A stretch of DNA of 64,000 nt from the NCBI RefSeq assembly GCF_000026545.1, contig NC_011601.1; one strand, written 5' to 3'. The translations under genes and the position numbers were made by a program. Origin of the DNA: Escherichia coli O127:H6 str. E2348/69 (lineage in GTDB: Bacteria > Pseudomonadota > Gammaproteobacteria > Enterobacterales > Enterobacteriaceae). The notes below the pieces were generated by a model, which was not told the origin of the DNA, did no database searches, and was given only the letters and a program-made list of their open reading frames with translations. The first letter of the stretch is position 1. Each line of letters opens with the position of its first letter. Of the stretch, positions 58,699 to 64,000 are shown one piece after another.

Positions 58699-61443
58699 AT
58701 GGAGAACATGACCTCGCCCGGCACGCTGCTTAGTGGAGATAACGCGACCTGGCTTGAAGAGTACTACCAGACCTGGTTGCGTACGCCGGAAAAACTCCCG
58801 GAAGACTGGCGGCGTTTTTTTCTTTCACCTGAACTGACTGTCCAAAGCGTATCCGGTGATAACAACGTCAGCGGTGCGACGTTAAAAAAACAGGCTGCGG
58901 TAATACAACTGATCAATGCCTGGCGCACGCAGGGGCATCTGCGCGCAAAGCTTGATCCACTTGGTTTGAATCCCCCGGCTGACGTTCCCTCCCTCCAGCC
59001 TGGTTTTTGGGGATTAAGCGAAGAAGACTTGTTGCAGGAATTTAGCGTCACCTTTGGCGCACACACCACGCAAATGCCACTTAAGCAACTGCTTAACCTG
59101 CTAGAGCAAGCCTGGGCCGGTAGCCAGGCTTATGAACTTGCTCATCTGGAAAATCGTGAAGAAATCAACTGGTTGTTATCACGGATTGAGAGCAGCAATG
59201 CGCCACAAGCAGATGTACAAACCTGTATTGCTCGTTTTGAAAAACTGATGGCGGCAGAGACGTTAGAGCGTTATCTGCATACCCGTTATGTTGGGCAGAA
59301 ACGGTTTTCTCTGGAAGGGGGCGAAAGTGCAATCCCGGCGCTCGATACGCTGACAAAACGCCTGCGTGCGCAAGGTGTGGAGGAAATGGTCATTGGCATG
59401 GCGCACCGGGGAAGACTTAATGTTCTGGTTAATCTGTTGAATAAAGACCCGGCACAGCTTTTTGCTGAGTTTGAAGGCAAGCAGACGATCGGCAGTGGTT
59501 CAGGCGATGTGAAATACCACATGGGGTATTCCAGCAATCTGGAAACACCTGCCGGTTCGCTGCATGTGGCGCTGGCGTATAACCCCTCACATCTGGAGAT
59601 CGTGAATCCGGTGGTGCTGGGCCAGGTGCGAGCCAGGCAGGAACGCCGTGGTGAGGATGGTCAGGCAAAAGTGGTGGGCGTACTTATTCATGGGGATTCC
59701 GCGTTGGGCGGCCTCGGCGTCAACCAAACCACGTTTAACTTATCGCAGACTCAGGGCTACGGCACTGGCGGTACGCTACATCTGGTGATTAACAATCAGA
59801 TTGGCTTCACCACTTCCCGCTTGCAGGATATGCGTTCTTCACGGTACTGCACCGATATTGCCAAAATGGTAGCGGCCCCAATTATCCACGTTAATGGCGA
59901 TGACGTTGACGCTGTTTGCCAGGTAATGGAACTGGCGTGCGAATGGCGAGACACCTTCCGGCGCGACATCATCATCGATATTTGCTGCTTCCGTAAGCAC
60001 GGACACAACGAAAGCGATGAGCCACGTCTTACCCAGCCACAAATGTATCAGGCAGTGGATGCTCACCCTGGTACGCTCGCCCGTTATGGTGAATCTCTTG
60101 CCCGCCGCGGCCTGTTAACTCAGGCGCAACAAGATGAGATGACGGCACGCTATCGCGACTGGCTGGATAGCTGCCAGAAACGTGAACCGCAGCCTCTCAA
60201 ACCTGCAATTCACTCTTTTAGCGCTAACTGGTATGGGTTGACCAACCCTCACTGGAGCGCCCCGGTATCTACGGCATTGCCTCGGCAAAAGCTGGCAGCG
60301 TATGGTGAAATCATTTCTACACTGCCACCCGATGTGGTCGCACATCCTACCATTAAACGGCAACTGGCGTTACGCCAGGATATGGCCGCAGGTACTCAGC
60401 CAATAGACTGGGGAATGGCTGAAATGCTGGCCTATGCATCGCTTGTGGATGCGGGTGTTGGTGTGCGTCTTTCTGGTGAAGACTCAGGGCGTGGCACGTT
60501 CAGTCATCGCCATGCAGTGGTACATCATCAAACTGAAGCCCGTCGTTATCTGCCGTTACAGCATATCCGCGCTGGTCAGGCATCTTTCGATGTTTATGAT
60601 TCGGTGCTTAATGAAGAAGCGCTCTTAGCCTTTGAATATGGCTATTCAACGTCTGCGCCTCAGCAACTGGTTATTTGGGAAGCGCAGTTTGGTGACTTTG
60701 CCAACGGCGCTCAGGTTGCTATTGACCAGTTTATCTCGTCTGGCGAAACCAAGTGGGATCGCTATAGCGGTTTAACCATTCTTCTGCCGCATGGCTATGA
60801 CGGACAAGGGCCGGAGCACTCTTCTGCGCGTCCTGAGCGCTGGCTGCAACTGTGCGCAGAAAACAACATGCAGGTGGTGATGCCCAGTGAGTCAGCACAA
60901 ATGTTCCATTTGCTGCGCGGTCAGGCATTACGCCCAATGCGCAAACCGTTAGTGATAATGATGAGTAAGCGTTTACTTCGGTTTAAAGGCGCGATGAGCG
61001 AGCTTTCTGAATTTACTGATGGCGCTTATAAACCGGTAATCACCGATCCGCAATTGCATCAGCCCCAGAAAGTTAAGCGCGTTATTTTGTGTAGCGGCCA
61101 GGTCTATTACGACGTACTGGAAGCCCGTAAGCAGCGTGAGTGTGAAGATGAGGTAGCGATTGTTCGCCTGGAGCAACTCTACCCGTTCCCGGTCGCAGAA
61201 CTGAATGATGTTCTGGCGAGTTGGCCGAACTGCTGCGAATGGATTTGGTTGCAGGAAGAGCCAGAAAACCAGGGCGCGTGGCGGCAGATTCGTCATGAGC
61301 TGGCGGCACTGAAAATTAACACTCCTTACTGGCAGTATGCAGGCCGCCCGGCAGCGGCAGCTCCGGCGACGGGGTATGGGCGTGTACATAAACAACAAAT
61401 CGACGAATTTCTTGCTGCTGCGTTTGCAGATATTCAGCCATGA
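58699..61443 (+). CDS. 2-oxoglutarate dehydrogenase E1-like component (SucA paralogue, ThDP-dependent)
   Basis: ORF 58624..61443; start set at MENMTSPG with SD caggagaaaaac; E1o hallmark stretches (RFSLEGGES, MAHRGRLNVLVN, HGDSALGGLGV, NNQIGFTTS, SGEDSGRGTFSHRHAV, EAQFGDFANGAQV, LLPHGYDGQGPEHSSAR). Confidence 0.85.
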   Translation: MENMTSPGTLLSGDNATWLEEYYQTWLRTPEKLPEDWRRFFLSPELTVQSVSGDNNVSGATLKKQAAVIQLINAWRTQGHLRAKLDPLGLNPPADVPSLQPGFWGLSEEDLLQEFSVTFGAHTTQMPLKQLLNLLEQAWAGSQAYELAHLENREEINWLLSRIESSNAPQADVQTCIARFEKLMAAETLERYLHTRYVGQKRFSLEGGESAIPALDTLTKRLRAQGVEEMVIGMAHRGRLNVLVNLLNKDPAQLFAEFEGKQTIGSGSGDVKYHMGYSSNLETPAGSLHVALAYNPSHLEIVNPVVLGQVRARQERRGEDGQAKVVGVLIHGDSALGGLGVNQTTFNLSQTQGYGTGGTLHLVINNQIGFTTSRLQDMRSSRYCTDIAKMVAAPIIHVNGDDVDAVCQVMELACEWRDTFRRDIIIDICCFRKHGHNESDEPRLTQPQMYQAVDAHPGTLARYGESLARRGLLTQAQQDEMTARYRDWLDSCQKREPQPLKPAIHSFSANWYGLTNPHWSAPVSTALPRQKLAAYGEIISTLPPDVVAHPTIKRQLALRQDMAAGTQPIDWGMAEMLAYASLVDAGVGVRLSGEDSGRGTFSHRHAVVHHQTEARRYLPLQHIRAGQASFDVYDSVLNEEALLAFEYGYSTSAPQQLVIWEAQFGDFANGAQVAIDQFISSGETKWDRYSGLTILLPHGYDGQGPEHSSARPERWLQLCAENNMQVVMPSESAQMFHLLRGQALRPMRKPLVIMMSKRLLRFKGAMSELSEFTDGAYKPVITDPQLHQPQKVKRVILCSGQVYYDVLEARKQRECEDEVAIVRLEQLYPFPVAELNDVLASWPNCCEWIWLQEEPENQGAWRQIRHELAALKINTPYWQYAGRPAAAAPATGYGRVHKQQIDEFLAAAFADIQP

Positions 61444-61475
61444 AAGGCGCACAAAAATAATAAGGAGAACATTTT

Positions 61476-62630: not shown

Positions 62631-62641
62631 GGAGAGCGCCA

Positions 62642-64000
62642 ATGAGTACAATTTTCGATGTGGCAGTTATGGGTGGTGGGCCAGGTGGTTACGTAGCGGC
62701 ACTGCGGGCTGCGCAGAATGGGCTTTCCGTAGTATGTATTGATGATGGTGTAAATGCTCAGGGCGAACCTTCGCCGGGCGGTACGTGCCTCAATGTCGGC
62801 TGTATTCCGTCAAAATCGTTGCTGCAATCTTCCGAACTGTACGCGCAAGTGCAGCATGAGGCGAGCATTCATGGCGTTAATGTTGACGGCGTATCTTTCA
62901 ATGCAGCTGCGATGATTCAACGTAAAGACGCCATAGTAAGCCGCCTGACAATGGGCATCGGTTTGCTGTTTAAGAAAAATAAAGTGAAGCACCTGTGCGG
63001 CCTCGCAACGTTAGAACATGCTCAGGATGAGATTTGGCAATTACGTGTAAACGATCAACAAATCCGCGCCCGTAATGTGGTGATTGCAACAGGTTCTCAG
63101 CCGCGTCAACTGCCTGGCGTTACCATTGATAATCAGCAAATTCTCGATAATCGCGGCGCCCTGGCGTTAACCGCTGTGCCGCCGCGTCTCGGTGTGATCG
63201 GCGCTGGCGTGATTGGCCTTGAACTGGGGTCTGTGTGGAATCGGGTCGGTTCAGACGTCACGTTGCTGGAGATGGCGCCAACGTTCTTGCCTGCACTGGA
63301 AGCTCGCCTGTCGAACGAAGTCCGTAAAGCAATGATTGCCAGTGGGATGAAAATGCAACTGGCAGTAGAGATTGAGGCTATTGAACAACGGGATGACGGT
63401 GTGCATGTGCGCTGGCGGCAGGGTGAGAAGCGAGAAGAAAGCCGCTTCGATAAATTAATTCTTGCCATTGGACGTGTACCGCGACTTTCTGGTGTCGATC
63501 TCGTGCAACTCGGTCTTGAAGCCGATAACCGTGGCGGTATTGCCGTCGATAACTTATGCCGTACCGGGAAAGCCGGGCTGTGGGCAATTGGTGATGTCGT
63601 GCGAGGGCCGATGCTGGCGCATAAAGCGATGGCTGAAGGTGTGGTGGTTGCTGATCAAATTGCCGGACTGGCGGTAGAGCCGATTAATTTTGCGCTGATC
63701 CCTTCGGTGATTTACACCCAACCGGAAGTTGCGTGGGTAGGGGAAAACGAGGCCTCACTGAAAGCCGCTGGCAGAGTCTTTAACAAAGGAAATTCTCTGT
63801 TTGCCGGTAACGGTCGCGCCTTAGCATTAGGCCAGGAAGGTGGGCGTTGCACGTTATACAGCGATAAACACACTGACCGCGTACTTGGCGGAGCGATTGT
63901 TGGCCCGCAGGCATCGGAGCTGATCAATGAAATTGCGCTGGCGATGACTTTTAGCGCCTCTGGCGAGGATATTGTCTGTGCGATCCATGCGCATCCGACA
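62642..64000 (+). CDS. Dihydrolipoamide dehydrogenase E3-like component (3' end outside window)
   Basis: Starts MSTIFDVAVMGGGPGGYVAALRAAQ; redox-active disulfide GGTCLNVGCIPSK; frame still open at window end (...HAHPT). Confidence 0.85.
   Translation, partial: MSTIFDVAVMGGGPGGYVAALRAAQNGLSVVCIDDGVNAQGEPSPGGTCLNVGCIPSKSLLQSSELYAQVQHEASIHGVNVDGVSFNAAAMIQRKDAIVSRLTMGIGLLFKKNKVKHLCGLATLEHAQDEIWQLRVNDQQIRARNVVIATGSQPRQLPGVTIDNQQILDNRGALALTAVPPRLGVIGAGVIGLELGSVWNRVGSDVTLLEMAPTFLPALEARLSNEVRKAMIASGMKMQLAVEIEAIEQRDDGVHVRWRQGEKREESRFDKLILAIGRVPRLSGVDLVQLGLEADNRGGIAVDNLCRTGKAGLWAIGDVVRGPMLAHKAMAEGVVVADQIAGLAVEPINFALIPSVIYTQPEVAWVGENEASLKAAGRVFNKGNSLFAGNGRALALGQEGGRCTLYSDKHTDRVLGGAIVGPQASELINEIALAMTFSASGEDIVCAIHAHPT

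Follow-up and report, generated by a model that had tools for sequence, protein, structure and literature searches.

The window analysed here, a 64,000-nucleotide stretch matching the Escherichia coli O127:H6 strain E2348/69 genome at 100% identity, ends in a cluster of three co-directional genes on the plus strand (58699-64000) that forms a second set of 2-oxoglutarate dehydrogenase complex genes (E1-E2-E3). The first gene (58699..61443) encodes a 914-residue paralogue of E1o, predicted to be a ThDP-dependent 2-oxoglutarate decarboxylase/dehydrogenase; its ATG is preceded by an AGGAG ribosome-binding site and is the start used in RefSeq. The second (61476..62630) encodes a paralogue of E2o, a predicted dihydrolipoyllysine succinyltransferase of 384 residues with a single lipoyl domain, and the third (62642..64000) a predicted dihydrolipoyl dehydrogenase (E3) that the window end cuts 60 nt before the stop; in full it runs to 64060 and comprises 472 residues. 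These open reading frames lie where the original prediction placed them, and given their length and E-values of 0, chance is not an issue. They are, as it held, homologous to SucA, SucB, and Lpd yet diverged, with 50.4, 53.5, and 39.2% identity to the respective K-12 proteins; E1 is 19 residues shorter than K-12 SucA and E2 is 21 residues shorter than SucB.

Assignment to function is consistent across the cluster. E1 scores 1214.7 bits against the NCBIfam equivalog for 2-oxoglutarate dehydrogenase E1 (NF006914, cut-off 764), E2 scores 552.4 bits against that for the succinyltransferase (NF004309, cut-off 449), and even the window-truncated E3 scores 452.4 bits against TIGR01350 (dihydrolipoyl dehydrogenase, cut-off 408.8). 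The alignment of E1 with E. coli SucA (2JGD) spans the full length of the protein; the ThDP-binding motif of E1, GD(G/S)-X(~27)-NN, is present as GDS...INN at residue 332, and the AHRGRLN and DVKYHMG segments, which hold the equivalents of SucA His260 and His298, are kept at the aligned positions. These two histidines are reported (Frank 2007; Shim 2011) to bind the distal carboxylate of 2-oxoglutarate. E2 has exactly one each of the Pfam domains Biotin_lipoyl (residues 3-75), E3_binding (93-126), and 2-oxoacid_dh (154-382), with the lipoyl motif ETDK at residue 39 and the catalytic motif DHRIIDG at 354. E3 carries a GxGxxG motif, the redox disulfide CLNVGC at residue 49 (aligned to Lpd C45/C50), and HAHPTLSE at residue 449, aligned to the C-terminal His...Glu dyad of Lpd (H445/E450).

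The cluster opens an island of 13.7 kb (13,712 bp) that replaces the 966-bp yjbS region found between tyrB and aphA in K-12, where yjbS is the only gene in the interval, as the original prediction stated. On the left, the island abuts the core-genome gene tyrB (57324..58517, plus strand), with K-12 homology stopping at 58518; this break defines the island left end and E1 upstream region (58519..58698, plus strand), and homology resumes 139 bp before aphA. A perfect 10-bp hairpin (inverted repeat) at 58526-58549 is probably the tyrB terminator. Beyond the window end, the order tyrB, E1, E2, E3 continues with paralogues of sucC and sucD, a DASS transporter, and an Ldh_2 oxidoreductase (34% identity to the hydroxycarboxylate dehydrogenase HcxB); genes for a sigma-54 regulator and a histidine kinase, a two-component system, lie between Ldh_2 and aphA on the opposite strand, convergent with the rest. 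All nine island genes are annotated as intact in RefSeq, with zero pseudogene flags, and all five enzymes of the operon (E1, E2, E3, SucC, and SucD) are above their equivalog cut-offs. The neighboring gene qorA is frameshifted in E2348/69.

This arrangement has been described before. The c5032-c5041 island of strain CFT073 (Cai et al. 2013 PLoS Pathog, PMC3694859; 2017, PMC5318444; 2021, PMC8716947) occupies the same tyrB-aphA site with the same gene order, and the 966-bp K-12 replacement matches Fig. 4A of PMC3694859. The island DNA is collinear with that of CFT073 at 98.5% identity; E1, E2, and E3 are 99.6, 99.2, and 99.4% identical in amino acids to c5032, c5034, and c5035, which are equal in length, and with SucC and SucD included, the five enzymes span 99.2-100% identity to counterparts of the same lengths. 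The KguR regulators of the two strains share one protein accession. Similarities to K-12 SucA, SucB, Lpd, SucC, and SucD (66, 75, 57, 71, and 84%) are near the published values of 64, 69, 55, 70, and 83% (PMC3694859). From this correspondence we infer orthology of the E2348/69 genes to the CFT073 cluster, and the three genes very probably open, as its first three cistrons, the c5032-c5037 operon, which forms part of the KguS/KguR alpha-ketoglutarate (KG) utilization island. The three-gene observation is thus right, yet not new, as the cluster belongs to an island already published.

Whereas E2348/69 is the prototype enteropathogenic E. coli (EPEC), CFT073 is uropathogenic (UPEC) and the source of all functional work. 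Substrate and role, which the original prediction called open, have already been addressed experimentally for c5032-c5035: in CFT073 the cluster forms an operon, is induced by KG through KguS/KguR, and contributes to fitness in urinary infection of mice (PMC3694859, PMC5318444, PMC8716947). Induction is specific to KG, with analogues inactive and mutants failing on KG only; deletion mutants have an anaerobic growth defect on KG, and expression is repressed by oxygen (PMC3694859). The original authors still name the enzyme a "putative KG dehydrogenase" (PMC8716947), and the reaction assigned here to the E2348/69 complex, KG to succinyl-CoA, is likewise a prediction. To the published picture of horizontally acquired central-metabolism paralogues with a dedicated sensor, through which a pathogen uses a host metabolite while its own TCA enzymes are off, our analysis adds modestly: an intact island in the prototype EPEC, a lineage-type distribution, a conserved sigma-54 element before E1, and the module in Pectobacterium.

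The regulator encoded in the island belongs to the sigma-54 enhancer-binding proteins, and a sigma-54-type -24/-12 element, TGGTACGGATTGTGCA (GG-N10-GC; 58648..58663, plus strand), precedes the E1 start codon by 51 nt; this element is predicted to drive the E1-E2-E3-sucC-sucD operon. Scanning the locus with a generic sigma-54 pattern proved too unspecific (19 matches versus 7.6 expected), so the assignment relies on position and on conservation across divergent loci: the element is kept in position in CFT073, E. albertii, Pectobacterium zantedeschiae, and one further contig (L010). As far as could be found, reports of a sigma-54 promoter concern the transporter operon, and the element before E1 is an addition; RpoN dependence was demonstrated for the transporter promoter (c5038) only (PMC5318444). 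A candidate KguR site, TGTGTG-N13-CGCGCA, was located by reading of the sequence and a regular-expression search at 58450..58474 (plus strand), inside the 3′ end of tyrB. The same motif, given with CFT073 coordinates, has been proposed as the KguR site for the c5032 promoter (PMC3694859, PMC8716947), and CFT073 shares both it and the sigma-54 element upstream of E1; between the two strains the E1 upstream region differs by a single base, outside the promoter element. The tyrB alleles of K-12 and E. albertii lack the right half-site of the motif. As the site lies within tyrB, ~200 bp upstream of the predicted promoter, and is missing in E. albertii, it is no more than a candidate for the activator site of the E1 operon. 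In E2348/69, one base is changed (CGCACA to CGCATA) in the KguR site that precedes the transporter gene.

E2348/69 retains its housekeeping genes in the order sdhB-sucA-sucB-sucC-sucD at 672-679 kb, and the island cluster is therefore a true paralogue; sucAB is present in 5425 of the 5426 complete E. coli genomes. The two systems have the same domain architecture and catalytic motifs and are both followed by succinyl-CoA synthetase genes, and the same reaction is predicted for the island complex. They differ in that the island has an E3 within the operon, whereas the housekeeping complex (SucA, SucB, and shared Lpd, with SucCD) borrows lpd from the pdh operon, and in control: the island promoter, predicted to be of the sigma-54/KguR type, is induced by KG and by low oxygen, in contrast to the aerobic TCA set sucABCD, which is repressed anaerobically (PMC8716947).

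The dedicated E3 is present as predicted, but it says less about autonomy than had been held, since suc operons in Betaproteobacteria and in other lineages are commonly laid out as E1-E2-E3-sucC-sucD. The sucA-sucB-lpd-sucC-sucD operons of Chitinimonas, Laribacter, Andreprevotia, and Neisseriaceae have the same five-gene order with the E3 in the operon, and of 80 related loci, 44 show, within the flank that was fetched, a co-directional E3 gene 3′ of E1. In a species-level genome scan, betaproteobacterial E1s were the nearest relatives (50-60% identity) after the copies in Escherichia, Pectobacterium, and contig L010; a homology search with the E1 protein returned near-identical E. coli sequences alone and was uninformative on origin. 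The betaproteobacterial operons, presumed to be the housekeeping operons of those organisms, differ from the island in that their fetched flanks contain neither a DASS transporter nor Ldh_2 or KguSR-like genes. The full island module is also found in Pectobacterium.

That the cluster might be an assembly artefact, or the housekeeping sucAB-lpd locus misplaced, was rejected: three independent E2348/69 assemblies and >1000 other complete genomes share these junctions, and besides the separate sucABCD in the same genome, the only megablast match of the island E1 to housekeeping sucA is one 201-bp stretch at 78.7% identity, leaving this explanation a negligible chance. Another reading gives the complex a substrate other than 2-oxoglutarate, such as 2-oxoadipate or a branched-chain or other dicarboxylic 2-oxoacid, and makes KG use an indirect phenotype. 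An identity to SucA of only 50%, the "putative" still attached to the enzyme in the literature (PMC8716947), and detectable homology to DHTKD1-type 2-oxoadipate E1s would all allow this; however, E1 matches SucA, at 925.7 bits, far better than it does DHTKD1, at 566, and lies 450 bits over the 2-oxoglutarate E1 equivalog cut-off. The retained equivalents of the two SucA histidines also argue against it, as do KG-specific induction and the failure of mutants on KG only (PMC3694859). The operon moreover goes on with succinate-CoA ligase paralogues above equivalog cut-offs, which is sensible only if the product is succinyl-CoA, and a different substrate appears very improbable.

The island of this intestinal strain could also be an inherited relic, silent or non-functional. 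It has been reported as UPEC-associated and absent from diarrhoeagenic strains, having gone undetected in 39 EPEC isolates; the point change in the KguR site before the transporter gene would fit such a history, and the frameshift in qorA indicates that gene decay does happen near the island. Against this, the nine genes are intact, the enzymes match those of CFT073 in length and near-identical sequence, KguR is the same protein, and the one base that separates the E1 upstream regions falls outside the promoter element, so that we give a relic only a slim chance.

The mechanism proposed under the favored reading, that of the KguS/KguR island, is as follows. The KguS sensor kinase would respond to external KG and phosphorylate KguR, an NtrC-type sigma-54 enhancer-binding protein, which would activate the sigma-54 promoters ahead of E1 and of the DASS transporter gene. 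The transporter would import KG; the island E1 (ThDP), E2 (lipoyl), and E3 (FAD/NAD+) would decarboxylate it oxidatively to succinyl-CoA, CO2, and NADH, and the co-transcribed SucC and SucD paralogues would convert succinyl-CoA to succinate with substrate-level formation of ATP. With the module active at low oxygen, where sucABCD is repressed, this suggests anaerobic use of host KG.

A more speculative extension, which we consider unlikely, is that the island supplies a biochemically distinct, self-contained dehydrogenase tolerant of the high anaerobic NADH/NAD+ ratio and, with the co-regulated Ldh_2, a redox-balanced KG dismutation in which one KG could yield succinate and ATP and another 2-hydroxyglutarate; it would then be a trait of B2 and E. 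albertii strains, common to intestinal pathogens and commensals, and not a UPEC virulence factor. The E354K change in Lpd renders pyruvate dehydrogenase insensitive to NADH, and the island E3 has Gln360 at the position of E. coli Lpd Glu354. This position is hypervariable in the 44 E3s downstream of related E1s (S, H, F, A, Q, N, D, E, W, and L); Gln360 is therefore no evidence of an adaptation to NADH insensitivity, and NADH tolerance was demoted to speculation.

The cluster is not universal at tyrB, being absent from K-12 and present, with its island, in 1050 of 5426 complete E. coli genomes, roughly one in five. Carriers include probiotic and commensal-type strains; together with the intact island in EPEC, this indicates that distribution tracks lineage and not the claimed UPEC pathotype. 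Judged by strain names (E2348/69, CFT073, S88, ATCC 25922, ST131, and A0 34/86), the island appears to belong to phylogroup-B2-type E. coli. Among the carriers sampled, island DNA identity is 98.8-100%.

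Three long co-directional open reading frames follow tyrB, as the original prediction held: E1 (58699-61443, plus strand; 914 aa, with AGGAG 5' of an ATG start that agrees with RefSeq), E2 (61476-62630, plus strand; 384 aa), and E3 (from 62642, plus strand), which crosses the window end and in the source genome reaches its stop 60 nt further on (472 aa). All three exceed the curated NCBIfam equivalog cut-offs that served as the threshold, E1 as 2-oxoglutarate dehydrogenase E1 (NF006914; 1214.7 bits versus 764), E2 as succinyltransferase (NF004309; 552.4 versus 449), and the truncated E3 as dihydrolipoyl dehydrogenase (TIGR01350; 452.4 versus 408.8). 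E1 contains the ThDP-binding motif GDS...NN and keeps AHRGRLN and DVKYHMG, where the counterparts of SucA His260 and His298 lie; E2 has one lipoyl, one E3-binding, and one acyltransferase core domain (Pfam), with ETDK (lipoyl) and DHRIIDG (catalytic) retained; E3 retains its disulfide motif CLNVGC and, in HAHPTLSE, the His-Glu dyad. At 50.4%, 53.5%, and 39.2% identity to K-12 SucA, SucB, and Lpd, they were correctly read as diverged sucAB/lpd paralogues.

Beyond the window end, E3 is followed by sucC and sucD paralogues, a DASS-family anion symporter, and an Ldh_2-family oxidoreductase, and then, on the opposite strand, by a sigma-54-dependent response regulator and a histidine kinase before aphA. 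Homology to K-12 ends 1 base past the tyrB stop codon (58518) and restarts 139 bp upstream of aphA; thus a 13,712-bp segment in E2348/69 stands in for the 966 bp containing yjbS in K-12, which lacks the cluster, as predicted. The oxidoreductase (c5039 orthologue; 21360-22433 of the extended E2348/69 locus) is 34% identical to the E. coli hydroxycarboxylate dehydrogenase HcxB/YbiC, and its best NCBIfam match, malate/lactate/ureidoglycolate dehydrogenase, scores 276.8 bits, under the 336-bit cut-off; it is conceivable that it acts as a 2-oxoglutarate reductase, a redox sink in alpha-ketoglutarate (KG) use.

Observation and interpretation were both correct; the cluster belongs to a genomic island that is already known and has been studied by experiment, and the finding is not new. 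The arrangement and its chromosomal position are shared by E. coli CFT073, which is collinear with E2348/69 at 98.5% DNA identity; E1, E2, E3, SucC, and SucD are 99.6%, 99.2%, 99.4%, 99.7%, and 100% identical between the strains, and the response regulator is one protein accession common to both. The five genes are c5032, c5034, c5035, c5036, and c5037 of the KG utilisation (Kgu) island (Cai et al., PLoS Pathog 2013, PMC3694859); computed similarities to the K-12 counterparts (66%, 75%, 57%, 71%, and 84%) are close to the published figures (64%, 69%, 55%, 70%, and 83%).

KG sensing, activation dependent on the sensor kinase KguS and the response regulator KguR, operon structure, and a requirement for anaerobic growth on KG have all been demonstrated in CFT073. 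Two operons, c5032-5037 and c5038-5039, are induced specifically by KG via KguS/KguR, more strongly at low oxygen; their deletion abolishes or impairs anaerobic growth on KG as sole carbon source, leaves aerobic KG growth and C4-dicarboxylate growth unaffected, and lowers fitness in the mouse urinary tract; the transporter gene c5038 is RpoN-dependent, and KguR is autoregulated (PMC3694859, PMC5318444, PMC8716947). The published genetics therefore answer, at the genetic level, the question of substrate and role that had been considered not evident from sequence; the enzyme itself is still termed putative in the literature. Family membership and operon logic suggest that E1, E2, and E3 would convert KG to succinyl-CoA, CO2, and NADH, that the SucCD paralogues would then yield succinate and ATP, and that the island enzymes may stand in for sucABCD, repressed without oxygen.

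A predicted sigma-54 promoter may drive the E1 operon: a -24/-12-type element, TGGTACGGATTGTGCA (58648-58663, plus strand), has GG-N10-GC spacing and lies 51 nt 5' of the E1 ATG. Its position is conserved in CFT073, and equivalents occur at -51 in E. albertii, -52 in Pectobacterium zantedeschiae, and -71 in a metagenomic contig with a related module, in unrelated flanking sequence. In the Kgu papers cited above, RpoN dependence is documented for the c5038 promoter only. The candidate KguR site proposed in the literature for c5032, TGTGTG-N13-CGCGCA (58450-58474, plus strand), lies inside the tyrB CDS, some 200 bp 5' of the predicted E1 promoter; a 2021 paper (PMC8716947) records this CFT073 site among its matches, in a CDS for an "aromatic amino acid transaminase". 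Its CGCGCA right half-site occurs only in the tyrB allele of E2348/69 and CFT073, being absent from K-12 and E. albertii; the last ~60 bp of this allele carry clustered substitutions relative to those two, which create the half-site and turn the TyrB C-terminal sequence LNTANVQRV into LNAQNVHRV. Upstream of the DASS transporter gene (c5038 orthologue), the KguR inverted repeat is TGTGCGGAAAACCGCGCATA in E2348/69 (19713-19732 of the extended locus) and ends in CGCACA in CFT073, a single right half-site change; the sigma-54 element there, TGGCATAGCTCCTGCA, is identical in both.

Misplacement of the housekeeping sucAB locus by assembly is ruled out by a separate sdhB-sucA-sucB-sucC-sucD operon at 672-679 kb in the same genome. 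Positions 58500-64000 are 100% identical to E2348/69 (serotype O127:H6), and NZ_LT827011.1 is identical to 46500-64000. Nearly every complete E. coli genome (5425 of 5426) contains K-12 sucAB DNA, and the island cluster is accordingly a genuine second copy. Nor are the genes universal at this site: the island occurs, essentially single-copy and chromosomal, in 1050 of the 5426, and K-12 lacks it. The E1 region matches at ≥95% DNA identity in 1041 of the 1050 carriers (98.8-100% in sampled full-length matches); the few matches below 90% include a short one to housekeeping sucA. Carriers include E2348/69, CFT073, S88, ATCC 25922, ST131 isolates, APEC O2:K1, and the probiotic A0 34/86, all of which we take to be phylogroup B2, and the island's distribution appears to follow lineage and not pathotype. 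According to Cai et al., commensal and diarrhoeagenic E. coli lack the Kgu system, and none of 39 EPEC isolates was positive for it; in contrast, the prototype EPEC E2348/69 has an intact island with zero pseudogene flags in RefSeq annotation.

In a scan with one genome per species, the nearest relative is in E. albertii, likewise next to tyrB (92-97% amino-acid identity), followed by a complete E1-E2-E3-sucC-sucD-DASS-Ldh_2-regulator module in P. zantedeschiae (62-86%) and a rearranged module on a contig binned as Flavobacteriia; further off, the closest E1s (50-60%) are in betaproteobacterial sucA-sucB-lpd-sucC-sucD operons. P. zantedeschiae has, besides a KguR orthologue (72%) at the module's far end, a second sigma-54 enhancer-binding protein gene directly 5' of E1 (8064-9449 of that locus; 36% identical to KguR). 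The dedicated E3 is present as described, but it is no special mark of an autonomous complex: because 44 of 80 related loci have E3 3' of E1 on the same strand, the in-operon gene represents a common ancestral layout. The E354K change in E. coli Lpd relieves NADH inhibition of PDH; the Glu354 position aligns with Gln360 in the island E3, which could fit an enzyme meant for anaerobic work. This substitution carries little weight, because suc-linked E3s are hypervariable there.

The chromosomal neighbourhood of the island is a hotspot for metabolic islets. In the alr-tyrB gap, a two-gene insertion (55684-57242, plus strand; 1,583 bp replacing 174 bp), present in CFT073 and absent from K-12 and E. 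albertii, codes for a nicotinamide riboside transporter of the PnuC family, short at 185 aa, and for an NMN adenylyltransferase/ribosylnicotinamide kinase-type ATPase that resembles NadR but lacks the DNA-binding domain; E2348/69 also retains the canonical pnuC beside nadA. The quinone oxidoreductase gene qorA (52043-53031, minus strand) is a pseudogene in E2348/69, frameshifted by a 5-bp insertion, TTACC, that K-12 lacks and that falls near nucleotide 734 of the gene. A further insertion of ~7 kb in the CFT073 qorA-dnaB gap (24815-31977 of that locus), absent from E2348/69 and K-12, encodes an FAD-dependent oxidoreductase, an MFS transporter, an enoyl-CoA hydratase, a CoA transferase, and a LacI-family regulator.
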